Positions 2,709 through 18,105 of a stretch of DNA of 64,000 nucleotides are shown here, piece by piece. The DNA is from a virus. The stretch is taken from positions 37,004-101,003 of the IMG/VR virus record IMGVR_UViG_3300009161_000031. One strand, 5' to 3'. The translations under genes were made by a program, and so were the position numbers. Numbering within the stretch: position 1 is the stretch's first letter; each line of letters opens with the position of its first letter. Below the pieces are notes generated by a model, which saw nothing but the letters and a program-made list of their open reading frames with translations, did not search any database and was not told where the DNA came from.

Positions 2709-3730
2709 AACAAACATAAAGACAGAGAACAAGGTTCCGCTATGATAACGGAACTAATGACGGGGGTCTGCTGTGCCATAATGTGCATTCTATTTGAGAG
2801 TTTTTTGATATAGAATAGGCTATTTCTAGCTGTTTGTAGATGATATTCGCCTATATATAAAAGAATTTAATATAAAACACTCCCTTATATAACCCTTACT
2901 AGGAGAATATAAGAGTCGTTTAGACCCGCCGGTTATGGGTTTTGTTGGTGTTTGGTTCATATGTATAGTATATCAAGATTATTGTAAAGTTAGAGGTTGA
3001 GTATCTCCCTCCGCAAATATGATATTAAATTATTTTATTTGTGTTTTTGTAGAAAAAGTCAAAATTTGTTCCGCTGGCGTTTTTTACATATAATGTTTCT
3101 TTATAGGTAAGTTGGCGATAATTGTTGGCGGTATTTGTTGTATTCAGTTATTGCCCGCAAATATCCTCAACAATTGTGGCATTCTTTAACTCCATAAATA
3201 AAAAAGAAAAATATCTTTTCATAAATTCGGGACTCTATTGTTTTCCTCTATTCTTAGAGTAATTAAAACAATAAATACTAACCGTTATATCCCCGCAAAT
3301 AGTTTAGACGGGATTTGAAGAATTTATCCTCTAGTCTAAACTCATATATCTACCAGCAAGTAATTACTCCAAGGTTAGACTGTCACTTTTGTGGCAGCCG
3401 AATCTGGAGTATTTTTTTTGCCCTCATTTAACGCAGTAAAAAAAAGTTTCTTTTTTCAGTTTTAGAATCAAAAACTCGAGAAAATATAAAGTTTATTTAT
3501 TTCCAAATAGGTAGACGTTAAAATAACCCCAACATCTAACACCAGATAAAACGGTCGTTTTTTGCTCCTTCGTCGCAAAAAGGGACGACCGCCTAATGTG
3601 GCTGTCTGATGTTGATGTTTGTGTGTGCGGTATTTATTACACATCCCATTTGTTATCGCACCAGAGGAGGCTGTTGTTCCAAAACAGCCGCAGGCTGTTT
3701 TGGAACAACAGGCCAACAGCTATTAGACAA

Positions 3731-3779
3731 AAAAAAGGGGAGAGGCTGAGGGAACGTGAAACCCCCAACCTCTCCCCTA
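3731..3779 (-). terminator. intrinsic terminator for minus-strand genes
   Basis: AGGGGAGAGG...CCTCTCCCCT stem; the A-run on + gives a U-tract on the minus strand just after the stop at 3787. Confidence 0.7.
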
Positions 3780-3786
3780 ATCTTAT

Positions 3787-3957
3787 TTAGAAGTTTACGT
3801 CTTTTACGCTAACTCCAACATTTACGAGATTAGTTTCATCATTTAGAATCCCACTCATTTGAGCGGTAACTAAATCTTCCATTTCTCTATCTGTAAGCAT
3901 TTTTCCTTCATCGCATTCCATACCGATTATCATTGTAAATAGTCTTAGTGTTTTCAT
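3787..3957 (-). CDS. hypothetical protein (56 aa, MKTLRLFTMIIGMECDEGK...)
   Basis: read manually; abuts the stop of 3958-4257, AAGGA upstream. Confidence 0.6.
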   Translation of the reverse strand: MKTLRLFTMIIGMECDEGKMLTDREMEDLVTAQMSGILNDETNLVNVGVSVKDVNF

Positions 3958-4257
3958 TTAGAAGTCCTTTCCAAAGTGTTCATTTATTTTATAGGCTAGG
4001 TATTCTTTATTTCCATTAGCGGGGTGATTCTTTATGCTGTTTTCTAATGATGACTCTTCAGCCAACTTTACTTCAGACTTATTACCGTAAGTCTGAACAT
4101 AAAGTTGATGCCAAGCACTTTCTGCTTCTGATTTGAGAATGTCAATCTCAAACTCTAAGTCTGCTATCTTTCCATCTTTCTTACCTTTACCCATAAGGTA
4201 TCCGGCAAGAACAGAACCCATCATTAGTACTACCTGAAACCAAAATAGATTTCTCAT
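3958..4257 (-). CDS. N-terminally membrane-anchored coiled-coil protein
   Basis: hydrophobic N-terminus LFWFQVVLMMGSVLAGYLMG followed by heptads; GGGAG RBS. Confidence 0.7.
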   Translation of the reverse strand: MRNLFWFQVVLMMGSVLAGYLMGKGKKDGKIADLEFEIDILKSEAESAWHQLYVQTYGNKSEVKLAEESSLENSIKNHPANGNKEYLAYKINEHFGKDF

Positions 4258-4547
4258 TGAATAAAATCTCCCGTCAACTCAAACAAACCATCTAGTTTGT
4301 TATTTACAACAATAAGCACTCTCTTTAGTTGAGCATTTTGTTCTTCTAAGTCATAAAGATTATTTAGTTTTTTGTGTATCTCTTCCATAGTTCTTGTTAT
4401 TCTGGCAATCTCAACATCTTTCTCTACAACAGTCATTTCTAAAGAAGTAATCACTTCTGCTAACTCAAAGTTAGAATAGTTCTCTAACTCAAAGATTCTT
4501 GCTTGTCTAACACTACTAGGAATAAATACTTCTTCTCTATTCTCCAT
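4254..4547 (-). CDS. coiled-coil hypothetical protein
   Basis: heptad-rich 97 aa; AGGA RBS. Confidence 0.7.
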   Translation of the reverse strand: MENREEVFIPSSVRQARIFELENYSNFELAEVITSLEMTVVEKDVEIARITRTMEEIHKKLNNLYDLEEQNAQLKRVLIVVNNKLDGLFELTGDFIQ

Positions 4548-4964
4548 TTTTATTTCCTATCTATTAGGCCCGATTAGTCGGGGGTAAGGGGTGGAACCGA
4601 TAAGGCCACCCTAGCACACTCTCCCGCTTGTCTCGCATTGGCAAACTAAAAAAGAAAAAACCAAAATTTTGATCCGGGGAATAGTTCTACATAATGTTTT
4701 CGCATAGAGATGTTTGAGATTATTATTGTTGATTATTGTTGCCGTTAGTTATTCGCTTATTTATTCCAGTTTATTGTTGAGATAAGACGAAGAGATGCTG
4801 GCGTGCCAAAATCGCCGGAGGCGATTTTGGCACGCCAGCCCTGAAGCGGACGCGTCAAGGGGAGGGGCCGTCGCCCCTCCCCTATTCGCCGCAGACCTTC
4901 GGTGCCTGCCTTCCCTTCGGGTCGGGGGCTTGTTCCCCTACCCGCTACTAGTAACCATCGCAGG

Positions 4965-5231
4965 CTAGGCTCTCACCCGTACTTGGGCGAAACCCTCGGG
5001 CGAGAAGTCTACGCGGCACTCTCCCGCTTGAACCTCCGCCCAATGCTTGCGAATGGTTGCGGACACCGTAGGCCGGTCGCTTTTGGCGACAGCGCCGAAT
5101 GTCCCCTTGAGGGCTACGCCTTGCTTGGGGGTAACCTTCGCAAGAGTCTCAAGAAGTTCTACAATAAGAACCTTCTTACGACCTCGTGGGGAAACCTGTA
5201 CGGAATCCGCTGAAATGAACTCATCGTTCAT
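4965..5231 (-). CDS. cassette C1, family A protein (VQVSPRGRKK...GTFG...DFSPEG.AQVR), putative DNA-binding
   Basis: GGAGGTG RBS before ATG 5231; paralogs at 6039 and 7659. Confidence 0.85.
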   Translation of the reverse strand: MNDEFISADSVQVSPRGRKKVLIVELLETLAKVTPKQGVALKGTFGAVAKSDRPTVSATIRKHWAEVQAGECRVDFSPEGFAQVRVRA

Positions 5232-5504
5232 TTGTCTAATCACCTCCCGTCTTGAGCCGTTGCTCTTAGTGTTTCGAAGAATCCGAACTTTACCGGATTA
5301 CCTGACAAAGAACAGACTACCGGCCTAGAGCTATTGAGTCCACTTCTGCTCATTCTTTTATTTTTATTCTCAATAACTAACCTACTAAAAAAGCCTCATT
5401 ATTTGACACCACTAGATGCTGTCGTGCCAGGATCGCCTGCGGCGATTTTGGCACGACAGCCCACTCCGTAGCCTCGGGGGTTTCCCCCCGAGGATTTGCG
5501 GAAC

Positions 5505-5714
5505 TTAGACGTACTGCTTCTCACATAGGCAGCATTTGTCGTTGTAGTAAAAATCTGATTCCTTGCGCTGTTTGATGGTCTGCCTGCGAACGATTAGGGG
5601 TATGTAACTACCGCCTTTGGCTCGGGGGTCATTGTGAAAACAGTCGTGACAGACTAAGCCGTTACCGCCTAGGCGATGAACAAAATAACAGCCTTTGAGT
5701 TTTGGAGAAGTCAT
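5505..5714 (-). CDS. cassette C2, small Cys-rich protein (CHDC, CCLC; possible Zn finger)
   Basis: own promoter, AAAGG RBS and terminator hairpin. Confidence 0.75.
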   Translation of the reverse strand: MTSPKLKGCYFVHRLGGNGLVCHDCFHNDPRAKGGSYIPLIVRRQTIKQRKESDFYYNDKCCLCEKQYV

Positions 5715-6038
5715 TATGAGCCTTTCGGACTAGGGGACTTGATTACATACTGAAATCTACTAGCTAACGGCCTGCGAGTCAAGCCTTAGCGAGTATTTAT
5801 TCTATTTATTTATTTATCTAACCCCAAGCAATGCTGGCGCTCCAAATCGCCGGAGGCGATTTGGAGCGCCAGCCCCGAGCGCGACAAGGCCCGCTCTGAG
5901 GGGGCAGAGCGGGCCTTGAGCTAGAGTAATTCGGGGGAGAGGTTCGCACCTCTCCCCCTACGGCTGCGGCTATCGGGATTGCCGCTGGCACCTCGCACCC
6001 CGTAGCAAGCGGGGGGCGCTACTGATACGATTCATCCG

Positions 6039-6305
6039 CTAGCGGATACGCACCTGCGCGTATCCCTCCGGTGAGAAATCAATACGGCATTCGCCGCTTT
6101 GTATAACGCACCAGTGCTTCCGAATCGTTGCTGCTACCGTCGGGCGGTCACTCTTGGCGACTACTCCAAAGGTTCCCTTAAGCGCAACACCCTGCTCGGG
6201 TGTGACGTTCGAGAGAGTGTCAAGCAAATCCTGAATAAGAATTTTCTTGCGCCCTCGCGGGGATACCTGTACGGCATCAGCAGGTAGAAATTCATCTGCT
6301 GGCAT
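6039..6305 (-). CDS. cassette C3, family A paralog
   Basis: GAGGTG RBS before ATG 6305; aligns with C1 and C6 over the full length. Confidence 0.85.
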   Translation of the reverse strand: MPADEFLPADAVQVSPRGRKKILIQDLLDTLSNVTPEQGVALKGTFGVVAKSDRPTVAATIRKHWCVIQSGECRIDFSPEGYAQVRIR

Positions 6306-6577
6306 AATAATCACCTCGATTCTTGGGCCGTTGCCCGATAGTTACGATGGGAACCTTGCCGTTCCCTGCTGACAAAGACCAAACTAATCGCGATGCCGTT
6401 CCCAGTCAATTTCTGTACGTCATTATTACCTCAAGAAACTTATCATTTGCGCACATTCCATAAAATGTAAATACCGCTACGACTTGACACGGGCGTGCCT
6501 TTTTGCGAGAGCAAAAAGGCACGCCCGCCCTGAGCAACCGGCATCAGGGCGAGCGTACGGCCTTTGGAGGCTCGCTG

Positions 6578-6868
6578 TTAGGCGAAATCCTCGGGGGTGA
6601 TGGAGTCCCAATCCATTGCGTCTACGACTTCCTCGGGGCTAATCCCGAGGAGTTCGGTCACCTCTAGGTGACTAACGCCTAAATCTAGCGCTCGGGCGAT
6701 AATGGCGGGGCCGAGAGCGTCAAAGGCGCGTGACATAAGAAGCACACCCGTTATGGCGTGACGGATAGAGTCGGGGTCGCCATTGACGACCAACTCGTGA
6801 AGGTTAAACATTGCCTGTACGCTTACCTCTAGCGTTTCTGTTAGTAGATTACGCTCTTGCTCGTTCAT
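6578..6868 (-). CDS. cassette C4, helical protein with possible C-terminal HTH (LGVSHLEVTELLGISPEEV)
   Basis: own promoter and RBS; the HTH call is inference. Confidence 0.8.
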   Translation of the reverse strand: MNEQERNLLTETLEVSVQAMFNLHELVVNGDPDSIRHAITGVLLMSRAFDALGPAIIARALDLGVSHLEVTELLGISPEEVVDAMDWDSITPEDFA

Positions 6869-7086
6869 TCGGTGGAGCCTCTCTGTTAGGTGACTTGCTT
6901 ACAAAAGAGAAACTACTAGCTATTGGCCTGCGAGTCAAGTCGGAGCGGGGATTTATTCTATTTTATTTACAATGCCAAGCCAAGAGATGCTGGCGCTCCA
7001 AATCGCCGGAGGCGATTTGGAGCGCCAGCGCATAGCAAAGCCCCCACCGTTGCCGGTAGGGGCTTTTATTGCTAAGGCGGGGTGGC

Positions 7087-7443
7087 TTAGTTATCCAGCC
7101 CCTTAAACGTGCGTTCGATGTCTCGGATTGTCTGCGCTGCCCACGCATAGGCGAGTCCCTGTAACTCGTCTGCGATAGGCTCCCCCACTAGAAGGCAGAG
7201 AGCGATTCTCAAGCCCTCTTGCTCTCCCTCTATTTTTAGGGCTTCGGCATTGTGCGGGTAGTTAAATGCGTCTAGGCGTAACTCGCTTATTCCTAGTCGA
7301 ATGGCTATGGCCTCAACAGCCGATTTGAGGTCTTTAACCCTTTCCATTATCGGATAATGGAAACCTGCCTGATAGTGAAAAAAGTTAAAGATCGCGTCTT
7401 TAAGTTTTTTTTCGTATGCTTCTGCGCTAGTCGCGATGTCCAT
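7087..7443 (-). CDS. cassette C5, hypothetical protein
   Basis: own promoter, AAAGG RBS and terminator. Confidence 0.8.
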   Translation of the reverse strand: MDIATSAEAYEKKLKDAIFNFFHYQAGFHYPIMERVKDLKSAVEAIAIRLGISELRLDAFNYPHNAEALKIEGEQEGLRIALCLLVGEPIADELQGLAYAWAAQTIRDIERTFKGLDN

Positions 7444-7658
7444 TGGGAGAGCCTTTCGGTTGGGTGGCTTGGGTACAAATGAGAAACTACCAGCTCACGG
7501 CCTGCGAGTCAAGCCGGAGCGGGTATTTATTCTATTTATTTTTGTTAGCGATACCAGATAATGCTGGCGCTCCAAATCGCCGGAGGCGATTTGGAGCGCC
7601 AGCGCATAGGAAAGCCCCCGCCTCACGGCAGGGGCTTTCCCGTATTCCGCTAAGGGGG

Positions 7659-7925
7659 TTAGCGGATTCTTACCTGAGCGTATCCCTCAGGCGAAAAGTC
7701 AATACGGCACTCTGAAGCCTGAACCTCGCTCCAATGCTTGCGGATAGTCGCCGCAACCGTTGGCCGGTCAGACTTAGCAACCTCACCGAACGTACCTTTG
7801 AGAGATACGCCTTGCTTTGCGGTTACTTTCTTTAGTGTTGCGAGTAGGTCGGGGATTAGGATTTTCTTTCGACCTCGGGGCGATACCTGAACATCGCTAG
7901 CGTCAATAAACTCATCTACGGGCAT
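7659..7925 (-). CDS. cassette C6, family A paralog
   Basis: AAAGGAAAG RBS before ATG 7925 (MPVDEF); the ORF-track start 8015 lies in the promoter. Confidence 0.85.
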   Translation of the reverse strand: MPVDEFIDASDVQVSPRGRKKILIPDLLATLKKVTAKQGVSLKGTFGEVAKSDRPTVAATIRKHWSEVQASECRIDFSPEGYAQVRIR

Positions 7926-8195
7926 TTGGCACTTTCCTTTTCTTAGTAGGTAGTTAGAGTAGAAAGTCTCCGCTCCAACAGAGATAAATCTACTCCTCCC
8001 TACTAAGTGAGTCAAGTTGGAGCGAGAGTTTTTCTAGAAACTTTTTGAGTAGCTGTCGGCCCGAGCGTTTATTCCACCTAACATAAAACCTAAGACGACT
8101 TGACACGGGCGTGCCTTTTTGCGAGGAACGAGCAAAAAGGCACGCCCGCCCTGAGCAACCGGCATCAGGGCGAGCGTGCGGCCTTGCGGAGCGGA

Positions 8196-8423
8196 CTAGA
8201 TAATCACGCCCTCCATCAGGTTTACCAACGCATCAGCCGTAGTTACCGGAGCGTAGCCGTAGGCAATAGCGGCGATTATTTCTCTATCGCCATTTTTTGC
8301 GGCGACTCTTAGAACGTGAGAGATAATGGCGACGACATTAGAGTCATTGCTTATCTTATGGGCGATAGAATCGGTGCGATTTATTAGAGCGCTTCTTATG
8401 GCTTGAGTTTGTTCAGGATTCAC
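8196..8423 (-). CDS. cassette C7, hypothetical helical protein
   Basis: GTG start after AAAGG; flanks nearly identical to those of C4. Confidence 0.75.
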   Translation of the reverse strand: MNPEQTQAIRSALINRTDSIAHKISNDSNVVAIISHVLRVAAKNGDREIIAAIAYGYAPVTTADALVNLMEGVII

Positions 8424-8709
8424 GTTGGAGCCTTTCGGTTAGGCGACTTGCTTACAAGAGAGAAACTACCAGCTATTGGCCTACGAGTCAAGCCGGAGAA
8501 GGTATTTATTCTATTTTATTTTAGAACTGATACCGAGCAATGCTGGCGCTCCAAATCGCCGGAGGCGATTTGGAGCGCCAGCCCTGAACGCAACAAAGCC
8601 CGCTCTGAGGGGGCAGAGCGGGCTTTGCGATAATGGCGGCCCCCCACGCCCCGTATGCGGGCGTAATGCCTTCAGCAAACCCAACGGGTTATGCGGGGGG
8701 GGCCACGAA

Positions 8710-8850
8710 CTAGAAGTTGAGAGACTCAATCCACGCTGCGACAATCGGCAGGACTATGAACGCCGAGATGCCGAGCAGATACGGGAAGACCTGCCTCCAC
8801 CTATCTTGGAGACTAAAGAATACCTCTACGCTATCGAAACGACGGTTCAT
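8710..8850 (-). CDS. cassette C8b, 46-aa single-pass membrane protein MNRRFDSVEVFFSLQDRWRQVFPYLLGISAFIVLPIVAAWIESLNF
   Basis: read manually; TGATG coupling to C8a. Confidence 0.65.
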   Translation of the reverse strand: MNRRFDSVEVFFSLQDRWRQVFPYLLGISAFIVLPIVAAWIESLNF

Positions 8851-9035
8851 CAGATTACCTTTCCGATTAGTGTGATGACTAGAGCGCCTAGACCTATTAG
8901 GGCTAGGAATCCTAGCGTTATTAGGGTCACGCCGAGTAGCCCTGCGGCCACCTCTGCGAAACTATCTTCGCGAACATTCTTGAACCACACGTTAGATAGT
9001 TTCATAGTTTTCCTTTGCTCGGGGTTGGTTTCCAT
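8850..9035 (-). CDS. cassette C8a, small membrane protein
   Basis: long hydrophobic C-terminus; ATG 9035 is 6 nt after the -10 box (leaderless), or an internal start MKLSN after AGGAA. Confidence 0.7.
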   Translation of the reverse strand: METNPEQRKTMKLSNVWFKNVREDSFAEVAAGLLGVTLITLGFLALIGLGALVITLIGKVI

Positions 9036-9231
9036 AGTTAGAAACTACTAGCTGATGGCCTGCGAGTCAAGTCTATTTGGTTATTTATTCTAAGTTTATC
9101 TAATACCGATACCAGCCTTTGCTGTCGTGCCTCACATTTATGTGAGGTGTCGTGAGGCACGACAGCCCGATAGGTTTCCGGGCGCGAAAAAGCCCCCCTT
9201 GCGGGGGGCTTCTGCCGACTCTCCGAGGCCG

Positions 9232-9573
9232 CTAGGCGACCTCGGGGCGGTCTTCCCGGCAGTCGTGATGCCCGCTGTAGCAAAACTCGTCGCTATCGAA
9301 CTCTATAGAGTCATCGCCCTCAACGAAAATAAGCATCCCTGCGGCCATAGCCTCGTAATGCCCCTCGGGGTTCTGAATGATAGCCATGTAATCCCTGTCC
9401 GTTTGAGGGTCAAGCGCCTCAACGGCATAACCGATTAGAGCAGTTTTATCCGCCCAGTCCGCGTCCCAAAAGTTTCGAGACTCAATAAAGCGCATAAGTC
9501 TCCATTCTTTGACATCAAGTAAGCCGCCAAAGTGAAAATCTAGCAAGTGGCGAACGGTTTCGATGGTCTCCAT
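9232..9573 (-). CDS. cassette C9, family B acidic protein
   Basis: AAGGGG RBS; paralog of C10 (IETVRHLLDFH...RNFW...NPEG.YEAMA...DEFC...H.DCRE.RPE). Confidence 0.85.
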   Translation of the reverse strand: METIETVRHLLDFHFGGLLDVKEWRLMRFIESRNFWDADWADKTALIGYAVEALDPQTDRDYMAIIQNPEGHYEAMAAGMLIFVEGDDSIEFDSDEFCYSGHHDCREDRPEVA

Positions 9574-9828
9574 TTTTTCCCCTTAGATCGGGAGTGCGGG
9601 GTGCGCTCCAACAAGGACAAAACTAATCGCGTTACCTATTTGAGTCAAGTTATAGAGGCAAATTGAGGAAAAGAATAGGTTCACTCTAAGTAGCCAAAAG
9701 CTATCACCACTCAACGCTGGCGTGCCTCACATTTTTTTGTGAGGTGCCGTGAGGCACGCCAGCCCGATGGGTTTCCGGGCGCGAAAAAGCCCCCCTTGCG
9801 GGGGGCTTCTGCCGACTCTCCGAGGCCG

Positions 9829-10176
9829 CTAGGCAGCCTCGGGGCGAGATTCCCGGCAGTCGTCGTGCTGGTCGATACAAAACTCATCAAGGTCGAAATC
9901 TAAGATACCTGAGGATTCTATGTGGCTAAGCATACCGACAGCCATCGCTTCGTAGTATCCCTCGGGGTTATTCATAATGACCTGATAATCATCGGCGGTC
10001 TGAGGGTTGATAACGCTCACCGCAAAACCGATAAGCGTCATTTTGTTTTCCCAATTTGCTTCCCAAAAGTTACGAAACATAATGGCACGCATTAGTTTCC
10101 ATTCATCGTGGAATGGCATAGTAAATGAATCCTGATGAAAATCTAGCAAGTGGCGAACGGTTTCGATGTTGTCCAT
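9829..10176 (-). CDS. cassette C10, family B acidic protein
   Basis: AAGGGG RBS; paralog of C9. Confidence 0.85.
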   Translation of the reverse strand: MDNIETVRHLLDFHQDSFTMPFHDEWKLMRAIMFRNFWEANWENKMTLIGFAVSVINPQTADDYQVIMNNPEGYYEAMAVGMLSHIESSGILDFDLDEFCIDQHDDCRESRPEAA

Positions 10177-10419
10177 TTTGTCCCCTTAGGTTGGGAGTGC
10201 CGGTTGCGCTCCAACAAGGACAAAACTAATCGCGTTTCGGTTTTGAGTCAACTTCTGCTAACGATTTGAGCAAAAGAATAGGTTCACTCTAAGTGGCCAC
10301 CAGCTACCACCAGACCCAGCGGGCGCACGCTACGAGGAACGAGTAGCGGGCAGCGTGCGCCCGCCCCCGAGGGGGAGTCACGGAGAGTGGTTGCCCACCC
10401 TCCGTGACCCGACCGGCCC

Positions 10420-10725
10420 CTACAGGTAGTCGTGGGCGATGTTGCGGATTATGTCGTTTACCCAACGGTCGGGCCAATCGAGGTAATCCTGAGACTCTGC
10501 GAATACGTCCACCGCATTGGCAAATGTGGTCACGCCTACGATAGCGTGCGGGAATCCCATACGGACTAAGGATAGGCTCTGAGTCCATTCCATAGAGTCT
10601 AGGGCTAGGATAAGGGGCATTAGGGCATCTATTGAGTGAACAGATCGCGCCTCGCCGCTGGCGTGAGCCTCAATGAGGCTAAGGCGTAGCGCCTTGCCCT
10701 CTGCGTCTAGTGAGTAATTCGGCAT
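10420..10725 (-). CDS. cassette C11, hypothetical protein
   Basis: own promoter, AAAGG RBS; MPNYS start resembles C13-C16. Confidence 0.8.
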   Translation of the reverse strand: MPNYSLDAEGKALRLSLIEAHASGEARSVHSIDALMPLILALDSMEWTQSLSLVRMGFPHAIVGVTTFANAVDVFAESQDYLDWPDRWVNDIIRNIAHDYL

Positions 10726-10970
10726 AATCGTGGAACCTTTCAGGTGAGGTGCGCCGGTTGCGCTCCAACAAGGACAAACCTACTAGCGTTCCGAATCTGA
10801 GTCAAGGCGGGAGAGCAAATTGAGGAAACAATGATGTTCACTCTAAGTGGCCAAAAGCTACCACCACACTCAGCGGGCGCACGCTACGAGGAACGAGTAG
10901 CGGGCAGCGTGCGCCCGCCCCCGAGGGGGGGTCACGGAGAGTGGTTGCCCACTCTCCGTGACCGGGTCGG

Positions 10971-11216
10971 TTAGAAATCGCACTCGTGGTTTACGTCGTG
11001 GTCGTCAAGGTTGGGAAGTTCGTGCCTCCACGCTTGGTAGAGAATCGCTTCCTCTAGCGCTGCTGCGCTGTAGTTTAGGATTGTGTAATCGAGCCACTTA
11101 GCGCCCGACTCTGCGGAAATCGTGCGAGAAATCTCGCAACGAAATGCGCGAACTAATGGGGCAAGTGCCGAACGCGACGCGGTTTCGGCGGCTAGGACTT
11201 TCTGTGTGTTGGTCAT
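10971..11216 (-). CDS. cassette C12, leaderless hypothetical protein
   Basis: TAGATT-N6-ATG, no RBS or leader. Confidence 0.75.
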   Translation of the reverse strand: MTNTQKVLAAETASRSALAPLVRAFRCEISRTISAESGAKWLDYTILNYSAAALEEAILYQAWRHELPNLDDHDVNHECDF

Positions 11217-11427
11217 AAGAGAAATCTACCCTAGATTAGATTCTGAGTCTAGTTATGCGGCTAAAGATTGTCTCAAGATGTTGAGGTTAGAATACTCACT
11301 CTAAGTGGCCAAAAGCTATCACCAGCCGTTGCGGGCGCACGCTACGAGGAACGAGTAGCGGGCAGCGTGCGCCCGCCCCCGAGGGGGGCCACGGAGAGTG
11401 GTTGCCCACTCTCCGTGACCGGGTCGG

Positions 11428-11640
11428 TTACTCCTCCCAGCCGACGATGCGGTCGGGGACTTCCCAGTCCTCAACGTCGCCGTCGTCCTCGCTGCGGACA
11501 GAGCGGGCGTAGACCTCGGGGTCATCGAAACTGAATTCGTAAACCTTGACCTCGATAGGAGCGCCCCACTGAATTCCAGAGAGGGCCGCGTCCCACTCCA
11601 TTGCCAATTCGCTTGCGGTCTTGCCAGAGACGTTCGGCAT
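11428..11640 (-). CDS. cassette C13, acidic small protein (family D tail EDDGDVEDWEVPDRIVGWEE)
   Basis: own promoter; C-terminal 20 aa shared with C15. Confidence 0.8.
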   Translation of the reverse strand: MPNVSGKTASELAMEWDAALSGIQWGAPIEVKVYEFSFDDPEVYARSVRSEDDGDVEDWEVPDRIVGWEE

Positions 11641-11908
11641 CTGCCAAATCCATTCTCTCAGGGAGTCCGCCGGTTGCTCGCTCCAATAAGTACAAACTAC
11701 TCGCGTTCGGAATCTGAGTCAACTTCTGCGTGCGAATTGAGGTAAAAATGATGTTCACTCTAAGTGGCCAAAAGCTATCACCACACAACGCTGGCGCACG
11801 CTACGAGGGACGAGTAGGCGGCAGCGTGCGCCAGCCCGGGCCAAGGTCACTCTGAGTGATGAGGGGGGAGCGCCCCGACCCTTGCGGGCCGGGGCTTGAC
11901 CCCTAGAC

Positions 11909-12217
11909 TCAGATTGAGAGTCTAAAGACCCTGGCTAGGTCTATGATTTCATCGCAAGCGGCTATTGCCTCGGTGCGAGGGACATCGTCGCCGCGTAGTG
12001 GGGCTAGGTCACCCAACACGCTTTGCATAGCGTGGCTGTAGGGGTTATCCATTCCCCAAATGCCGGTGGTCATGAGCACGTTGAAGATAACGTGAGCGTT
12101 CATGAACGTGCACCCCCACAATTCCTGTATCCGTTCCTTAATAAGTACGGAATTGGTGCTTACGGTTACCGCCGCATCGGTTGTCGCGGTTGCGACCTCT
12201 CCAGAGAAGTTCGGCAT
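11909..12217 (-). CDS. cassette C14, family E protein
   Basis: 102 aa, paralog of C16. Confidence 0.8.
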   Translation of the reverse strand: MPNFSGEVATATTDAAVTVSTNSVLIKERIQELWGCTFMNAHVIFNVLMTTGIWGMDNPYSHAMQSVLGDLAPLRGDDVPRTEAIAACDEIIDLARVFRLSI

Positions 12218-12542
12218 GTGGCCAAATCCATTCTCTCGGGGAGGGAGCCGGTTGCTCTCTCCAATAAGTACAAACTACCAAACATCAGTATGCGAGTCTA
12301 TTTGTGCGCCTAATTATTACCTCAAGATTAAAAAAAGAATCCAAAAAAAACCAGCTCCCGGCTTGACACGGGCGAGCGGGTGTGATTTGTTCTGCGGCCA
12401 CTCTAAGTGACATTTTTTCCCATACCAGCCAACGCGGGCGAGCTTAGCACACGGTAGATCGTGTGTGCGTATGGGGCGGCTCGCCCGCCGAACCCCAAAG
12501 GGGAGGGGAGAGGCTGGAGCCTCTCCCCTTTGCCCCCGGGAG

Positions 12543-12728
12543 TTACTCCTCCCAGCCGGTGATGCGGTCGGGGACTTCCCAGTCCTCAACATCGCCGTCA
12601 TCCTCAAGCGGGAACCGGTCGGGGCTGACCGTGTGGAGGATGCTGTCCAACTGTCCGAGCGGATGCCCGAACATGTGTTCTATCAAGCCGCGTGCGTCAA
12701 ACGCGGGGCTAGCAGAGAAGTTCGGCAT
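12543..12728 (-). CDS. cassette C15, acidic small protein (family D tail)
   Basis: N-terminus as C14 (MPNFS), C-terminus as C13. Confidence 0.8.
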   Translation of the reverse strand: MPNFSASPAFDARGLIEHMFGHPLGQLDSILHTVSPDRFPLEDDGDVEDWEVPDRITGWEE

Positions 12729-12863
12729 GTGGCCAAATCCATTCTCTCGGGGAGGGAGCCGGTCGCTCTCTCCAATAAGTACAAACTACCAGCTAATGGC
12801 TTGCGAGTCTATTTCTGCGGGCTATTTCTTTGCATTATTTCTTTTTTTATTTGTGAGCAGAAC

Positions 12864-12892
12864 TTGACAGCGTACTAAACTTGTACTAGACT
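12864..12892 (+). promoter_or_regulatory. plus-strand promoter TTGACA-N17-TAGACT pointing into the C16 palindrome
   Basis: near-consensus boxes with a 17-bp spacer; no credible ORF downstream. Confidence 0.55.
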
Positions 12893-13024
12893 ACCCCACC
12901 ACTCTGCGCTGGCGCACGCTACGAGGGACGAGTAGGCGGCAGCGTGCGCCAGCCCGGGCCAATGTCACTCTGAGTGATGAGGGGGGGGGGAGCGCCCCGA
13001 CCCTTGCGGGCCGGGGCTTGACCC

Positions 13025-13333
13025 CTAGGCTGCGTCTACCCAATCCATCATTAGGTAAACGATTACCTCGGAGGCAATCATCGCCTCGGAGTGTGGAGTA
13101 TTAGTCCGACGCAGGCCGATTAGTGAGGCCATTACTCTCTCGCCTGCGGTATGGGCCATTCCCTCGGTTGCCCAAATCATAGTGGACGATAGGGCTCCGA
13201 ATACCGCTTGAGCGGTTCTTGAGTCAACATTCCACAATTCTTTGATGCGCTTAGTGATTGCTATTGAGCAAGGCGCTACGGTTACCGCCGTATCGGTTGC
13301 CGCGATTGCGACCTCTCCAGAGAAGGTAGGCAT
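13025..13333 (-). CDS. cassette C16, family E protein
   Basis: 102 aa, paralog of C14. Confidence 0.8.
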   Translation of the reverse strand: MPTFSGEVAIAATDTAVTVAPCSIAITKRIKELWNVDSRTAQAVFGALSSTMIWATEGMAHTAGERVMASLIGLRRTNTPHSEAMIASEVIVYLMMDWVDAA

Positions 13334-13651
13334 TTGGCCAAATCCAGTCTCTCGGGGAGCGAGCCGGTTGCTCTCTCCAATAAGTACAATTTACCAAACA
13401 TCAGTGAGTGAGTCTATTTCTGCGCCTCATTGTTTCCTCAAGATAATAAAAGAAATCCAGCTCCCGGCTTGACACGCAGCCGCGGCTGTGATTTATTCTG
13501 CGACCACTCTAAGTGACCAAAAATGCCAAACCAAGCCGAGCGGGCGAGCTTAGCACACGAAGAGCGTGTGTGCGTATGGGGCGGCTCGCCCGCCGAACCC
13601 CAAAAGGGGAGGGGAGGGGCCGGAGCCCCCCCCCCTTGCTCCCCCGGAGGG

Positions 13652-13945
13652 TTACTCCTCGTCTCGGAAGACGGGGTACCAACGCTCACCCTCGGGGGTG
13701 ACGATGAGAACATCGGCAGCCTCGGCAGCGGCGACGAGAATGTCCACCGTCGCTTCGAGTATTAGCAACTCGAAGGTTGTGGTGAACGAGGTGACCGCGT
13801 CAAGCGCCTTGTCCGTAGCCTTGAACGCGTCGGCCAACTCTTGCGCCTCGTAGCGGTTCACGTAGAACCCCTCTAGGCGTTTCGCGAGAACCGTCGCGTC
13901 GGCTACCGCGGGTGCGGTCTTGCTAAGAGAGAGAATCGGCTTCAT
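13652..13945 (-). CDS. cassette C17, hypothetical protein (MKPILSLSK...)
   Basis: start 13945 or in-frame 13957; the ORF-track start 14011 lies in the promoter. Confidence 0.75.
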   Translation of the reverse strand: MKPILSLSKTAPAVADATVLAKRLEGFYVNRYEAQELADAFKATDKALDAVTSFTTTFELLILEATVDILVAAAEAADVLIVTPEGERWYPVFRDEE

Positions 13946-14267
13946 GCCGTAGTCCATTCTCTTGGGGAGTCCGCCGGTTGCTCGCTCCGATAAGTACAAA
14001 CTACCAAACACGCCTATGCGAGTCCATTTCTGCGCCTCATTTTTTCCTCAAGATAAAAAAAAGAATCAAAAAAAAACTAGCTCCCGGCTTGACACGCAGC
14101 CGCGGCTGTGATTTATTTTATGACCACTCTAAGTGACCAAAAATGCCAAACCAAGCCGAGCGGGCGATCCTAGCACACGGTAGATCGTGTGTGCTTGGGC
14201 GGCTCGCCCGCGTGACCCCAAAGGGGGAGGGGAGAGGCCGGAGCCCCTCCCCTTGTTCCCGGCTCCC

Positions 14268-14477
14268 TTAGACTTCGTACCCGTGGCGGGTAAGAATGTC
14301 CCGGGTCATTGAGACGATTGTCTCGTTGAGGGCAACCATCTCAGCCCCGAACGATTCGCCGTGAGAGCGAATGTTGATGTCAATCCCCGCATTGCGGATT
14401 GACATTCTCAGCCGGGACTCAGCGTCGCGAACGAAGTCGCGAAGCACACTTGCCCCACTCTCGGTTATTCCGGCCAT
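14268..14477 (-). CDS. cassette C18, hypothetical protein (MAGITESG...)
   Basis: AAGGAG RBS before ATG 14477. Confidence 0.8.
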   Translation of the reverse strand: MAGITESGASVLRDFVRDAESRLRMSIRNAGIDINIRSHGESFGAEMVALNETIVSMTRDILTRHGYEV

Positions 14478-14799
14478 AACTGTCTCCTTAGGTTCGTGGA
14501 GCGAACCGGTTGTTCCCTCCAACAAGTACTAACCTATCGCGTCCCCGTGTGCGAGTCCACTTCTGCGCCTAAATGTTTCCTCAAGATAAAAAAAAGAATC
14601 GAAAAAAAACCAGCTCCCGGCTTGACACGGCGGCGCGCCTGTGATTTATTCTGCGGCCACTCTAAGTGACATTTTTTCCGCCCCCAGTTCTCGCGGGCGA
14701 TCCTAGCACACGGTAGATCGTGTGTGCTTGGGCGGCTCGCCCGCGTGACCCCAAAGGGGAGGGGAGGGGCCGGAGCCCCCCCCCCTTTTCCCGGGAAGT

Positions 14800-15045
14800 T
14801 TACTTTGTCCACTTAATGGCAAAGTCGATTGCCTTAGGCAACATCACTTGGATGTCGTACTCATCCTCGGTGTAGTAGTCTGTGATGAGGTACTGTAGCG
14901 CCTCACTTATGACCTCGGGGGAGAGTGTGGCAACAAACTCCATGGCCGCCTTGACGCACATGATAGGCATGTGAATCGGGTCAAGGCTAACGGCCTTGGC
15001 GTGTGCCGCGATTGCGGCCTTGCTAAGAGAGAGAATCGGCTCCAT
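14800..15045 (-). CDS. cassette C19, hypothetical protein (MEPILSLSK...)
   Basis: start 15045 or 15057; N-terminus shared with C17. Confidence 0.75.
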   Translation of the reverse strand: MEPILSLSKAAIAAHAKAVSLDPIHMPIMCVKAAMEFVATLSPEVISEALQYLITDYYTEDEYDIQVMLPKAIDFAIKWTK

Positions 15046-15328
15046 GCCGTAATCCATTCTCTAGGGGAGTCCGCCGGTTGCGTGCTCCGATAAGTACAAA
15101 CTACCAAACACGCGTAGGTGAGTCCACTTCTGCGCCTCATTATTACCTCAAGATAATAAAAAAAATAAATCCGGCTCCCGACTTGACACGGGGCCGCGGC
15201 TGTGATTTATTTCACGGCCACTCTAAGTGGTCAAAAAAGCGTATCCATATTTAGCGGGCGATCCTAGCACACGAAGAGCGTGTGTGCTGTCCGGGCCGCC
15301 CACGTAACTGTTGTTCTGGGGGGCCGCT

Positions 15329-15438
15329 GGGCGCGGCGAGCCGCGATGTGGGGCGCGGCGAGCCGCGATGTGGGGCGCGGCGAGCCGCGATGTGGGGCGC
15401 GGCGAGCCGCGATGTGGGGCGCGGCGAGACGCGATGTG
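15329..15438. repeat. 5 x 22-bp tandem repeat GGGCGCGGCGAGCCGCGATGTG
   Basis: exact tandem copies, last with one mismatch; internal palindrome CGCGGC-GA-GCCGCG. Confidence 0.95.
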
Positions 15439-15535
15439 GGGTACGTCAAGCTGACTCCAGGCCAGAACCAGGGCTCGGGCCTGGGCGCGCAGAGGGGGGA
15501 GAGGCCGGAGCCCCTCCCCCGCCTCGCCTGCGGGG

Positions 15536-15649
15536 TTATGCGATGCAGTAGATTAGGAAGCAGAGCAGCTCTGCCCTGCGCTCTTCGCTCAAGAGCGGGG
15601 TCGTGTGGTACGTGTAGTCGAGCAACATAATCAGTTCGCCGTGTGTCAT
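15536..15649 (-). CDS. cassette C20, 37-aa peptide MTHGELIMLLDYTYHTTPLLSEERRAELLCFLIYCIA
   Basis: read manually; AAAGGAA RBS, own promoter at 15691-15719, hairpins after the stop. Confidence 0.65.
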   Translation of the reverse strand: MTHGELIMLLDYTYHTTPLLSEERRAELLCFLIYCIA

Positions 15650-15845
15650 AGTTTTCCTTTTTTCGGGGAGCCGGTTGCTCCGATAAAGATAACTTATCAC
15701 CGGCCCTAGTGTGAGTCAAGTTGGAGCGGGTATTTCTTTTATTTTATTTATCGGGCCGCGCTGTTGGCCGCGCTGTCGGGGTAGGTCGCGTGGTGTGTGC
15801 TGTTGTGTGAGTAGGGCAGGGCGGGTACGCCCTGCTGGCTCTGCC

Positions 15846-15943
15846 CTGGCCTGACCCAGGGTCGCGAGCTGGCCTGACCCAGGGCCGCGAGCTGGCCTGA
15901 CCCAGGGCCGCGAGCTGGCCTGACCCAGGGCCGCGAGCTGGCC
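15846..15943. repeat. 4.3 x 23-bp tandem repeat CTGGCCTGACCCAGGGCCGCGAG
   Basis: direct reading; first copy has one mismatch. Confidence 0.95.
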
Positions 15944-16015
15944 GCGTCCTGGCCTACACGCGACAACGCCGCGACCCACGCTATCGGGTCGCGGTGTTCG
16001 CCTATGGCGGTACGA

Positions 16016-16382
16016 TAACCCGCACCCCTTGAGACTCTCGCACTAGGCGAGAGTCTCGCGGGCTACGTGCTAGGCGCTTAGGGCTATTAGTTCGGTTGCG
16101 ACGTTACCGGCGTTGGCGATTGTGTGGACTAGTGCGGCCTCAAGCGCGGTAGTCTGTCCATCGGTCGCAAGCATTAGCAACATCTCGCGGATAGTCCGGT
16201 CGGCGTTGGAATGGCCAAGAATCGCCTCGGTCACTCGGCGCGTTATTTCGTCAAGCCGTATTTCTACTGCGCGGTGCTGGTGGTGATTCATTATGTCCCC
16301 TTTGGTTGGTTGGTTGGTGGTACGGTAACCCGCACCCCTTGAGACTCTCGCACTAGGCGAGAGTCTCGCGGGCTACGTGCTA
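16016..16382. repeat. 57-bp exact direct repeat (16016-16072, 16326-16382) with hairpin GAGACTCTCGC-ACTAG-GCGAGAGTCTC
   Basis: each copy starts, on the minus strand, at the TAG of a small gene. Confidence 0.95.
16070..16291 (-). CDS. cassette C21, hypothetical protein
   Basis: AAAGGGG RBS. Confidence 0.75.
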   Translation of the reverse strand: MNHHQHRAVEIRLDEITRRVTEAILGHSNADRTIREMLLMLATDGQTTALEAALVHTIANAGNVATELIALSA

Positions 16383-16661
16383 AACGCTTACGTGGTGGAA
16401 CGCTATCACCGCGTTCGCGTTCTCGGCACCGATTACGTTCCCACCGATTACGTGACCGGCGAGACGCGCAAGCCATACGCGGCGCTCTTTAGTTGGCATC
16501 GCGGCTATTGCTATCGCGGCACCACGTAGGCGAGGCTCTGACTCAAACAGTAGGGCCGCGTTTGCCTTGAGGCGGAGACTCAAGGCATCTTGCTCCCCTA
16601 CTACTTGCGCGCGGTCCGCGTTGCCACCGGTGTCCGGTAGGTCTAGCGTGGAATCGAACAT
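16380..16661 (-). CDS. cassette C22, hypothetical protein (MFDSTLDLPDTGG...)
   Basis: AAAGGGG RBS before ATG 16661. Confidence 0.7.
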   Translation of the reverse strand: MFDSTLDLPDTGGNADRAQVVGEQDALSLRLKANAALLFESEPRLRGAAIAIAAMPTKERRVWLARLAGHVIGGNVIGAENANAVIAFHHVSV

Positions 16662-16887
16662 TTGTTCCCCTTTGGTTAGATTCCGAGCGGGTGTCTCCCG
16701 CTCGGCCTTGCCCCTAAAGCGTACCGCGTCGCGGGTGCCGCGCATAGCATCGGGGCCGCGATTAGGCGAAGAATCGGGAGCTTGACCGCGCAGCGTGGCC
16801 AGCTATGGGCCGATTCTCACGCCGCGTGGTCGTTGGAGGTCGTTCTGGCAGATGGTGCGCCAGCACGACAGACTTCTCCTAATATTT

Positions 16888-16948
16888 ATTCAATTTTTCA
16901 AAAATATGTATTCAAGTTTTTGAATTCTTGCATTCAAGTTTTTGAATT
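16888..16948. repeat. three 22-bp-phased ATTCAA-GTTT-TTGAAT sites
   Basis: starts 16888 (degenerate), 16910, 16932, at the GC/AT junction. Confidence 0.8.
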
Positions 16949-17097
16949 TTTGGGTTGTTGTATATTTATGATGAAAGGGGGGCTTTTGGGGTTGTTTGGT
17001 TATATTTATTGGTATGTAGGCACTCTCTGTAAGGTTCGCATGTTTCGTCGCTCTACGGGGCACACAGGGGGCTCTCCGGGGATTGTACACGCCTATA

Positions 17098-18105
17098 TCA
17101 TGGGCCTGTTTGCATACCTATTGTTGCTTTGTTGTGTTTGATGATTTGGCTTGCTACCCATTGGGCGACGGGTGCTGCGATGCCGTTTCCGATCATGCGG
17201 AGTCTGGGTGTATCTTTGACGGCTCTGCCGTCTGCGAGCGTGGCGCAATGGCCTTCGGGCCAGCCCATGAGTCGTTCGCATTCCAATGGGCTAAGCCGCC
17301 GGAGTTGATGGGTCCCGCCCGTTTCGGGTCTGAGGTTATCGACCGCAATGAGGGTCGATTCGCGTTCATGGGTGCTCGCGACCAATGATGGGGCTATTGT
17401 TCCTTCGCCGTATTTTCCATATCCTGTTGATACAAAGATGCTTGGCGCTGGAGGATCTCCAAGAGTTGTTCCGGGATCGGGGCGTTGCGGCTTTGAATTC
17501 GTTTCATGATGCCTGCGCAAGCTTTTGGGCTGAGGGTATATCGTGGGTGCGGACTCTCCTCCAGCATGGAAATCAGCGATGAGAAAGACTCTTCGCCTGC
17601 GTTGGGATAAGCCGAAGTTTTGAGCATCCAGGATTCGCCATTCGATTGCCATTGCCCCCAGCCCAACCATACTTTCGAGTACACGGAGAAATGACTGTCC
17701 ATGTTCGGCACTAAGGAGTCCAACAACATTTTCTGCAACGGCGTATCGGGGATAAATTCCATCTGTGGCCTCTCTCATTTCTCGGATAATGCGGGCCGCT
17801 TCAAAGAAGAGAACTGACCGCTGACCTTTAAAGCCCTGCCGGGTGTCACCATAGACACCAGCGTTGCTTACATCCTGACAGGGGAACCCAAATGTGATGA
17901 TATCAACAGGCTCTATGTCATATCCGTTGATATCAACTATATCACCATATCTAGTGACGTTAGGCCAATGCCGTTCTAGGATGCTAGTGCAGCGCTCGTC
18001 TTTTTCGACTTGCCACTTGCATTCTAGTCCCGCAGCATCAAAGCCTAAATCTAATCCACCTACTCCAGCAAAAAGTGACCCATAGGTCATTGTTTTAGAT
18101 ATCAA
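17098..18105 (-). CDS. dcm: DNA (cytosine-5)-methyltransferase
   Basis: motif I SLFAGVGG, IV GFPCQ, VI ENV, VIII Q.RRRVF, IX RRLSPLECERLMG, X GNG. Confidence 0.95.
   Translation of the reverse strand: MISKTMTYGSLFAGVGGLDLGFDAAGLECKWQVEKDERCTSILERHWPNVTRYGDIVDINGYDIEPVDIITFGFPCQDVSNAGVYGDTRQGFKGQRSVLFFEAARIIREMREATDGIYPRYAVAENVVGLLSAEHGQSFLRVLESMVGLGAMAIEWRILDAQNFGLSQRRRRVFLIADFHAGGESAPTIYPQPKSLRRHHETNSKPQRPDPGTTLGDPPAPSIFVSTGYGKYGEGTIAPSLVASTHERESTLIAVDNLRPETGGTHQLRRLSPLECERLMGWPEGHCATLADGRAVKDTPRLRMIGNGIAAPVAQWVASQIIKHNKATIGMQTGP
17394..17762 (-). CDS. nested alternative-frame ORF inside dcm (putative second polypeptide)
   Basis: GAGAGG RBS-like element before ATG; SL..MLEE.PHPRY.LSPKACAGIMKR segment resembles overlapping-frame products of two-polypeptide C5 MTases. 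Confidence 0.6.
   Translation of the reverse strand: MEFIPDTPLQKMLLDSLVPNMDSHFSVYSKVWLGWGQWQSNGESWMLKTSAYPNAGEESFSSLISMLEESPHPRYTLSPKACAGIMKRIQSRNAPIPEQLLEILQRQASLYQQDMENTAKEQ

Follow-up and report, generated by a model that had tools for sequence, protein, structure and literature searches.

The closest described counterparts of the locus considered here are found in T4-type phages, where promoter-early stem-loop (PeSL) cassettes provide repeated frames that act as linkers for insertions, deletions and shuffling among close relatives (PMC2839356, PMC4122927). A second point of reference is phage N4, in which the virion RNA polymerase uses a promoter hairpin that supercoiling extrudes on the template strand and that is capped by a triloop with a sheared G:A pair (PMC4496689). 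The locus itself is an array of about 20 small early-type genes, parted by hairpin-forming palindromes, in IMG/VR record IMGVR_UViG_3300009161_000031. This record is a complete virus of 101,003 bp with about 40% GC, of which a stretch of 64,000 nucleotides (bases 37004-101003, referred to as the window, with coordinates counted from its first base) was analysed. The palindromes are real, conserved and structured; they mark the boundaries in an early cassette array of the PeSL kind that belongs to a new phage lineage, and what is new here is a strictly Watson-Crick palindrome with a conserved foot that stands beside an ordinary terminator.

The likeness to PeSLs includes the hyperplastic region of small ORFan genes, the GC-rich stem-loop, the AT-rich stretch and the strong host-type promoter. 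The GC-rich stem-loop is present between stop codon and promoter, with two hairpins per boundary, and the ORFan region is bounded by conserved genes, with crossovers in the repeated motif in one relative (L022). The locus differs in that (i) the phage is a BE-like siphovirus and not a T4-like myovirus, as indicated by a 2557-aa tape measure protein and by capsid and portal proteins nearest to those of the BE cluster, (ii) the array has 52-69% GC in a genome of about 40% GC, and (iii) the second hairpin, which is strictly Watson-Crick, 36-55 nt long and has an invariant foot, is without a PeSL counterpart, the RNA-type GGGG..CCCC terminator being the PeSL-like one.

Other known systems share parts of this design. 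N4 promoters and most elements of this genome have in common a template-strand hairpin with a 3-nt sheared G:A loop upstream of early genes, whereas N4 stems are of 5-7 bp, are centred at -11 from the transcription start and are served by an injected polymerase of about 3500 aa; here the stems have 13-20 bp, and 50-150 nt separate the elements from the downstream -35 box of an ordinary promoter. With attC sites there is also one hairpin-forming site per cassette, with the outer box and the structure conserved and bulges in some members, but attC sites are imperfect palindromes, whereas most elements here are perfect, and the array has no IntI, has its own promoters and has different core boxes (foot GCKGKCG...CGMCMGC). 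The takeover regions of SPO1 and T5 likewise contain dense small early genes with their own promoter and terminator, and the repetitive extragenic palindromes (REPs) and bacterial interspersed mosaic elements (BIMEs) lie, as here, outside genes at the 3' end of a transcription unit. To our knowledge neither SPO1/T5 nor REP/BIME has been described with a covarying palindrome family that has a conserved foot. In REPs a single sequence is conserved throughout a genome, and they come with a GTAG foot and a REP-associated tyrosine (RAYT) transposase. The present elements, unlike REPs, vary in sequence; no GTAG was found beside their stems and PF01797 (Y1/RAYT transposase) had no match in the genome, with the control matched in 6 genomes, and membership of the REP/RAYT group was rejected.

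Palindromes with a conserved foot

On the gene (-) strand each unit runs from a palindrome through an AT-rich spacer, a promoter and a leader hairpin with ribosome-binding site to an open reading frame (ORF) of 37-118 codons, followed by a GC-rich hairpin (hairpin 1) and, after a gap of 6-21 nt, the next palindrome. For perfect hairpins with a stem of at least 12 bp and a loop of 3-24 nt, window positions 3500-16500 gave 20 distinct examples, against a mean of 0.03 and a maximum of 1 in 30 dinucleotide shuffles. The same criteria gave none in positions 16501-64000 (47.5 kb), and the other 37 kb of the genome hold one trivial AT hairpin only. A chance origin of the hairpins is excluded. The first-pass annotation of the window had placed the elements between 3552 and 12953, with two tip subtypes and with flipped tips at 5418 and 3552; all of these are present at the coordinates that it gave, but the family does not end there and continues to 15302 with elements of the E-type (types A to E, Table 1). 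The copies at 5833, 6989, 7563 and 8542 are identical and are therefore treated as one observation, counted once.

The sole feature common to the elements across phages is the foot, in which (G)C-K-G-K-C-G pairs with C-G-M-C-M-G(C). The interior differs from phage to phage, taking the form of a perfect stem of 13-20 bp or of a short bulged hairpin, and the distance between the half-feet varies over 36-55 nt. This genome holds 17 copies of the foot pattern, every one inside the array, and none of the reversed control pattern; a 97-kb relative holds 7, again with none for the control.

That the stems vary in sequence yet stay paired had been read from the elements at 3671, 4797 and 5833, and this is borne out both there and in the wider family, for which RNAalifold with 26 distinct elements from 7 sources predicted 12 pairs, 10 of them with compensatory double changes. 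Foot positions 2-6 are paired in all of 49 distinct elements despite substitution at position 2 (G:C/T:A 33/16) and position 4 (44/5), and pairing at positions 8-15 reaches 64%, compared with 33% (maximum 40%) when arms from different elements are combined; these element counts are not independent events and include many paralogues. It follows from the covariation and the pairing statistics that hairpin formation is under selection, or is actively maintained. In a relative with 62% GC (L025, 3400-10520) nearly all hairpins and their flanks are built on CCGATCGG (core CGATCG), a pattern that suggests that the interiors evolve in concert inside a given genome.

The triloops on the template (+) strand of this genome are GGA and GCA. 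A longer tip of 9 nt reads C-GA-G-GAA-C-GA-G at 8106, 10319, 10873 and 11331 and C-GA-G-GGA-C-GA-G at 11790 and 12908. In this longer tip only the N of GNA varies: the triplet is GAA or GGA here, GCA in L022 at 1152 and GAA in L030 at 9111. The tip recurs in a phage with a marker protein only 52% identical, and a variation limited to N fits a sheared G:A pair as in N4 (PMC4496689). The proposal that a GNA triloop is kept stands within this genome and falls among the relatives, since the loops of L025 are GGG, GAG, TGCA and AATA and those of other loci are of 6-15 nt. What does recur in homologous phages is the 9-nt tip (L022, L030), whereas the triloop varies and families are flipped. Of 53 elements, 34 have the more purine-rich inner part on the antisense strand and 16 have it on the sense strand, and in the relatives entire families are flipped. 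By folding energy the antisense strand is the more stable one in 33 elements and the sense strand in 17 (G.U pairs 54 vs 35). These biases of loop and folding are tendencies among related sequences and not rules. Flipped tips, as at 5418, at 3552 and in families of relatives, are what arm-to-arm recombination produces.

Strict pairing and the neighbouring terminators

The two hairpins at each boundary differ in how they pair. For this comparison 23 distinct hairpin-1 stems and 23 distinct palindromes were treated alike, with only helix pairs counted. The hairpin-1 stems hold 268 Watson-Crick pairs, 15 gene-strand G.T pairs and 3 A.C pairs (18 non-Watson-Crick of 286), whereas in the palindromes 362 pairs are Watson-Crick and 5 of 367 are not, namely 3 G.T at one D-type position and 2 A.C in element 5418. 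The wobble asymmetry of hairpin 1 is the one expected of a structure that forms in sense-strand RNA. The palindromes, in contrast, are strictly Watson-Crick, and the constraint therefore acts on both strands or on the DNA itself. Such pairing is not expected of an element that works purely as sense RNA, but it is expected under a DNA-level or two-strand constraint. To judge from the sequences, the complementarity would fit a structure that forms on both strands, be it a cruciform or hairpins in transcripts of both directions, and it would also fit arms that are kept identical by template switching or by arm-to-arm recombination.

A separate terminator next to the palindromes had been noted at the outset and is confirmed by T-runs that follow hairpin 1 on the gene strand at c01 (T8), at c12 and c13 (T5) and at the homologue of c01 in L024 (T7). 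In these cases the palindrome therefore lies past a genuine intrinsic terminator and before the next promoter. Many hairpin-1 elements are without a T-run, and after the palindromes no T-run is found on either strand. With no U-tract, and with wobble at 5/367 against 18/286 in the adjacent terminator hairpins, the palindromes were rejected as intrinsic (rho-independent) terminators, and Rfam gave no family above noise for them. Thus, of the suggestion that these are DNA hairpins rather than RNA terminators, the part that sets them apart from terminators is upheld by the lack of a T-run and by the strict pairing, while the step to DNA is weakened in that RNA folding in two directions would give the same complementarity.

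Relatives of the array and exchange of cassettes

Among 50,697 phage records nothing comes near the array at the DNA level. When IMG/VR was scanned for exact occurrences of the A-type foot pattern, the sole matches were chance ones in GC-rich contigs, and the window's own paralogues as query against IMG/VR gave nothing. A broader alignment of cassette proteins led to two viral contigs of about 97 kb and 13 metagenome loci, all of them reached through one protein family (SPRGRK, after its SPRGRK..IRKHW motif), and gave nothing in 185,579 prokaryote genomes. These phages come from lake and river metagenomes and belong to a BE-like actinophage lineage; on the evidence of their genes the clade appears to be one of uncultured siphoviruses related to Streptomyces BE-cluster phages.

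The design of hairpin 1, palindrome and promoter region is common to all loci (L022-L036). The synteny runs from a methyltransferase or SNase through the GC-rich array and two to three SPRGRK paralogues to the convergent genes, with the flanking methyltransferase, SNase and convergent genes conserved and one cassette family shared with the relatives. The arrays of the relatives are also GC-rich in an AT-rich backbone, for instance 65-69% against 42% in L029. The position of the palindrome is conserved across phages that share almost no cassette genes.

Two relatives are close enough for exchanges to be followed. L022 is about 90% identical to window 7564-11514, is without cassette c13 and has c14 and c15 in reversed order; followed base by base, the switches fall in the shared spacer around CACTCTAAGTG and within or beside identical D-type palindromes. 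L024 matches cassettes c03-c01 at 84% nucleotide identity, and the homology ends at the stop codon of c01, beyond which a different terminator and palindrome follow. The pattern of cassette shuffling is that described for PeSLs and shows the frames in the role of linkers (PMC2839356, PMC4122927).

What the palindromes may do

The most likely single reading, to which we give a probability of roughly 0.45, is that the palindromes have a mainly DNA-level role, in which a supercoil- or replication-driven hairpin would act as insulator and as recombination joint. The palindrome would fold as a hairpin on single-stranded DNA or extrude as a cruciform, the latter driven by negative supercoiling behind the adjacent strong promoter. 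Once folded it may insulate the neighbouring units topologically or transcriptionally, in both directions, and may serve as a joint for recombination or template switching. Switching or recombination from arm to arm would account for the perfect arms, for interior changes that affect both arms and for the flipped tips. Among the points in favour of this reading, the phage encodes recombination proteins of its own (a UvsX/RecA-like protein, Cas4-like and Mre11-type exonucleases, a RuvC-like resolvase and SSB), and precedents are provided by PeSL cassettes (PMC2839356, PMC4122927) and by the supercoil-extruded template-strand hairpin of N4 (PMC4496689). We infer the extrusion, the single-stranded folding and the acting protein from sequence features. 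Several observations weigh against this reading. The strict complementarity would also result if the hairpin had to fold in transcripts of both polarities. A-type palindromes have GC-rich centres, and such centres slow cruciform extrusion, as established cruciform kinetics have it. The conserved sequence of the foot is not accounted for by a purely structural role, and the strand bias of the loops (34 vs 16, with flipped families) is a mere tendency. Finally, the mapped crossovers fall in the shared frames generally, that is in the CACTCTAAGTG spacer, the promoter or the palindrome, and not in the palindrome alone, so ordinary homologous recombination suffices and the palindrome need not be an active joint.

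A purely RNA role, second in likelihood, is doubtful, though it has a real chance of being right. Here the palindromes would be bidirectional insulators or terminators, or 3'-end protectors, that fold in sense read-through and in antisense transcripts, while the DNA never folds. Their position is that of the PeSL stem-loop, which terminates transcription (PMC2839356), but canonical terminators already stand ahead of them at c01, c12 and c13, and neither strand has the T-run that would be expected after them. Hairpin 1 is often without a T-run, so a second hairpin could back it up, yet a perfect stem of 19-20 bp with an invariant foot is unneeded for termination. Folding on both strands would forbid G.U pairs, and antisense transcription is plausible in that the array, the sole large minus-strand block, converges with plus-strand genes at 3.3-3.8 kb; at such a convergent end, however, one strong terminator would block incoming antisense transcription.

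It is unlikely that the DNA-level role extends to an integrase-free, structure-directed shuffling of cassettes. In that case the palindromes would fold on the lagging-strand template or as cruciforms, the phage's RuvC-like resolvase or Mre11-type nuclease would cut them or the polymerase would stall and switch template, the breaks would drive exchange within and between co-infecting phages, and repair would raise GC by biased conversion.

Could the foot instead be a binding site? A reading that we hold to be improbable takes the foot of the folded hairpin or cruciform as the predicted site of a dedicated protein, the SPRGRK..IRKHW protein or a host factor, which by binding would control or shield the array. 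From phage to phage the foot C-K-G-K-C-G/C-G-M-C-M-G does not change, in contrast to the free interior, and the variable distance between half-feet (36-55 nt) would suit recognition of the folded form; element 3671, however, keeps a perfect stem though its foot has drifted to CTGTTG. The SPRGRK family has 116 metagenome homologues, is the sole cassette gene family common to all related arrays and always occurs as two to three tandem cassettes at their downstream end, but its co-occurrence with the element follows from the way in which the loci were found, which was through SPRGRK itself. The protein has an AT-hook-like PRGRK segment, and one homologue bears the source's own name 'nucleoid DNA-binding protein', although no Pfam or PHROG family and no PDB sequence match was found for the family and a search of the Atlas led to unnamed viral clusters only. 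With an AlphaFold model of pLDDT (predicted local distance difference test) 82, Foldseek gave no match at E<=0.001 and the best VIA-align match had Z 5.5, which is within noise; R3H/KhpB single-strand nucleic-acid-binding domains recur at Z about 4, as a lead only. A protein that reads the foot is a possible partner under a DNA or an RNA role alike.

That the palindromes are attC-like, structure-specific recombination sites cut by a dedicated enzyme is very unlikely. The conserved structure and outer box with variable sequence, the asymmetric extrahelical bulges of the C, D and E types and the single element per cassette, together with a cassette order that differs between close relatives, all recall such sites. 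The complete 101-kb genome, however, gave no match to the tyrosine recombinase profile PF00589 (control matched in 14 of 14 genomes), and no serine recombinase or Y1 transposase was found in it; moreover no cassette is promoterless, RYYYAAC/GTTRRRY boxes are absent and the crossovers are spread over the shared frames.

The least credible proposal, for which we see hardly any prospect, takes the palindromes for hairpin promoters of the N4 type, or for initiation signals in single-stranded form, at which a phage polymerase or primase would use the template strand. The likeness to N4 suggested by the first-pass annotation survives in the side of the tips: as in N4 (PMC4496689), it is the template (+) strand upstream of each gene that bears the GNA or tandem G.A tips, which holds for most elements here and for the 9-nt tip of L022 and L030, although relatives vary and some families are flipped, so that the loops are not conserved. 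The phage does encode a primase and a helicase of its own (DnaB-like, with a DNA polymerase and SSB among the replication genes), but its largest ORFs, the tape measure protein (2557 aa) and a tail protein of 2145 aa, provide no virion RNA polymerase candidate. Profile PF00940 had no match in the genome, in a scan of part of the ORFs for which the control was also blank. Since the stems, at 13-20 bp, are not those of 5-7 bp, the elements stand 50-150 nt from promoters and the genes already carry host-type promoters, the analogy fails on anatomy, and no such polymerase was seen among the ORFs covered. A sigma-54 promoter, a CRISPR-repeat mimic, a Chi site, a methyltransferase target and a protelomerase site were compared by eye and none fits all element types.

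Genomic setting and further features

The capsid protein is 56% and the portal protein about 43% identical to proteins of Streptomyces BE-cluster phages, their nearest counterparts. A phrog_284 exonuclease is among the products of the genome. Nearly all genes lie on the plus strand, with the exception of the minus-strand block at window 3.7-23 kb, the first 13 kb of which form a GC island of 52-62%. Synteny with phage Faust extends over small minus-strand genes, methyltransferase and ThyX and then plus-strand glycosyltransferases, ribonucleotide reductase and portal; palindromes of this kind were not found in this Streptomyces phage. No Pfam or PHROG family was found for any of 10 cassette proteins tested. 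Table 1 gives the positions of the elements and of the main neighbouring features.

Table 1. Palindromes, terminator hairpins and selected genes and signals of the cassette array (window coordinates)
Feature	Position	Strand	Remarks
B-type, degenerate, 3-nt bulge	3552..3591		tip flipped: TCCTTCGTC on +, equal to GACGAAGGA on -
A-type, 19-bp perfect stem, + loop GCA	3671..3711		foot AT-shifted, CTGTTG/CAACAG, all changes compensated
A-type, 20-bp perfect stem, + loop GGA	4797..4839		
A-type variant, + loop TGC (flipped)	5418..5460		two G.T wobbles on +, equal to A.C on gene strand
A-type, 19 bp, GGA	5833..5873		identical copies 6989-7029, 7563-7603, 8542-8582
B-type, 17-bp stem, + loop GAGA	6490..6527		upstream of SPRGRK paralogue c06
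B-type, 17-bp stem, + tip GAGGAACGA	8106..8148		upstream of SPRGRK paralogue c09
C-type, branched, 15-bp outer stem	9121..9166		second copy 9716-9763, foot change compensated
D-type, 13-bp outer stem, inner GCTAC-GAGGAACGA-GTAGC, 7-nt bulge	10319..10364		copies 10873-10918, 11331-11376
D-type, GGA-tip variants	11790-11835, 12908-12953		
E-type, foot GCGGGCGAGC, inner CACACG hairpin, asymmetric bulge	12434..12488		copies 13540-13593, 14160-14211, 14693-14744
E-type, degenerate copy	15255-15302		
Terminator hairpin (hairpin 1) of c01	3727..3778	-	T8 follows on gene strand
Terminator hairpin of c12, GCCCCCC-GCAA-GGGGGGC then TTTTT	9188..9214	-	same hairpin after c13, ~9785-9811
Promoter example TTGACT-N17-TAGTTT	7484..7512	-	50 nt past palindrome 7563-7603 in transcription direction
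SPRGRK..IRKHW paralogues c04, c06, c09	4965..5243, 6039..6314, 7659..7925	-	~90 aa
C5 DNA methyltransferase	17098..18105	-	conserved gene at upstream edge of array in several relatives

The predicted promoter, TTGACT-N17-TAG(T/A)TT with an AT-rich upstream part, is present in about 18 copies in the array, and a generic promoter scanner catches few of them because TAGTTT matches TATAAT at 3 of 6 positions. The AT-rich spacer carries an inverted repeat, CACTTAGAGTG, in many units. On the plus strand there are promoter-like sequences directed toward the palindromes (TTGACA-N17-TTTATT, near 12360, 13470, 14090, 14620 and 15180), which have a weak -10 and are confined to E-type units. Between palindrome and next promoter lies the motif CACTCTAAGTG (for instance window 10285-10295), with one per cassette from 9682 to 15229. 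In several units it is extended to a perfect 17-mer, GGCCACT-N3-AGTGGCC, and one crossover between L022 and the window falls inside the motif, which looks like a candidate operator for a dimeric regulator.

The gene-strand 3' flank of most palindromes has a G/T-rich motif (N-T-G-G, often GGTGAT or GCTGGTG) 7-12 nt beyond the foot, for instance at 10297-10312, 10850-10872 and 9700-9715, and the same is seen in L029 and L030; one copy, at 10297-10304 on the minus strand, is the exact Escherichia coli Chi octamer GCTGGTGG. The array of the window holds no DnaA boxes. In the two relatives of about 97 kb there are palindromes that lie on DnaA-box-like words (TTATCCACA, TTGTCCACA), at 6054-6092 and 8726-8766 of L036 and at 4681-4745 of L030.

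At the upstream end of the array two GC-rich, intergenic tandem arrays (15330-15420 and 15860-15945) consist of 4-5 copies each of units of about 22-23 bp. Genes c24 and c25 are followed by two identical, imperfect inverted repeats of 26 nt (16016-16072 and 16326-16382; core GAGACTCTCGC-ACTAG-GCGAGAGTCTC), which form a hairpin family distinct from the foot-bearing palindromes.

Codon use in the array is also distinct, with TTA at 4.9% of Leu codons and 60% GC at third codon positions (GC3), against 21.8% and 33% in backbone genes; the GC of the array was measured over window 4800-17000, and the phage carries tRNA-Leu(UAA) and tRNA-Glu(UUC) (12546-12618 and 15547-15631 in the coordinates of entry L038). 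One possible reading is that the GC-rich early genes are tuned to a GC-rich (actinobacterial) host, and another possible one is that the GC island results from GC-biased conversion at a recombination hotspot.

Significance

ORFan early regions are where phages keep and exchange genes for host takeover and anti-defence, and how such genes are insulated and shuffled is known only in outline, from T4-type phages. The present array adds a second, unrelated lineage that uses a PeSL-like design, together with an element selected for pairing on both strands. This is particularly relevant given that perfect palindromes are usually a liability, being targets of SbcCD-type nucleases and of some defence systems. 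Comparing neighbouring hairpins for strict as opposed to wobble-tolerant pairing is a simple computational test and could be carried over to other systems, and the element, at 40 bp and clonable, makes it possible to test for a part of DNA hairpins or cruciforms in the exchange or insulation of phage genes. If structure-directed shuffling did prove true, the array would be a functional phage counterpart of the integron, moving self-expressed early cassettes that are probably directed against the host.

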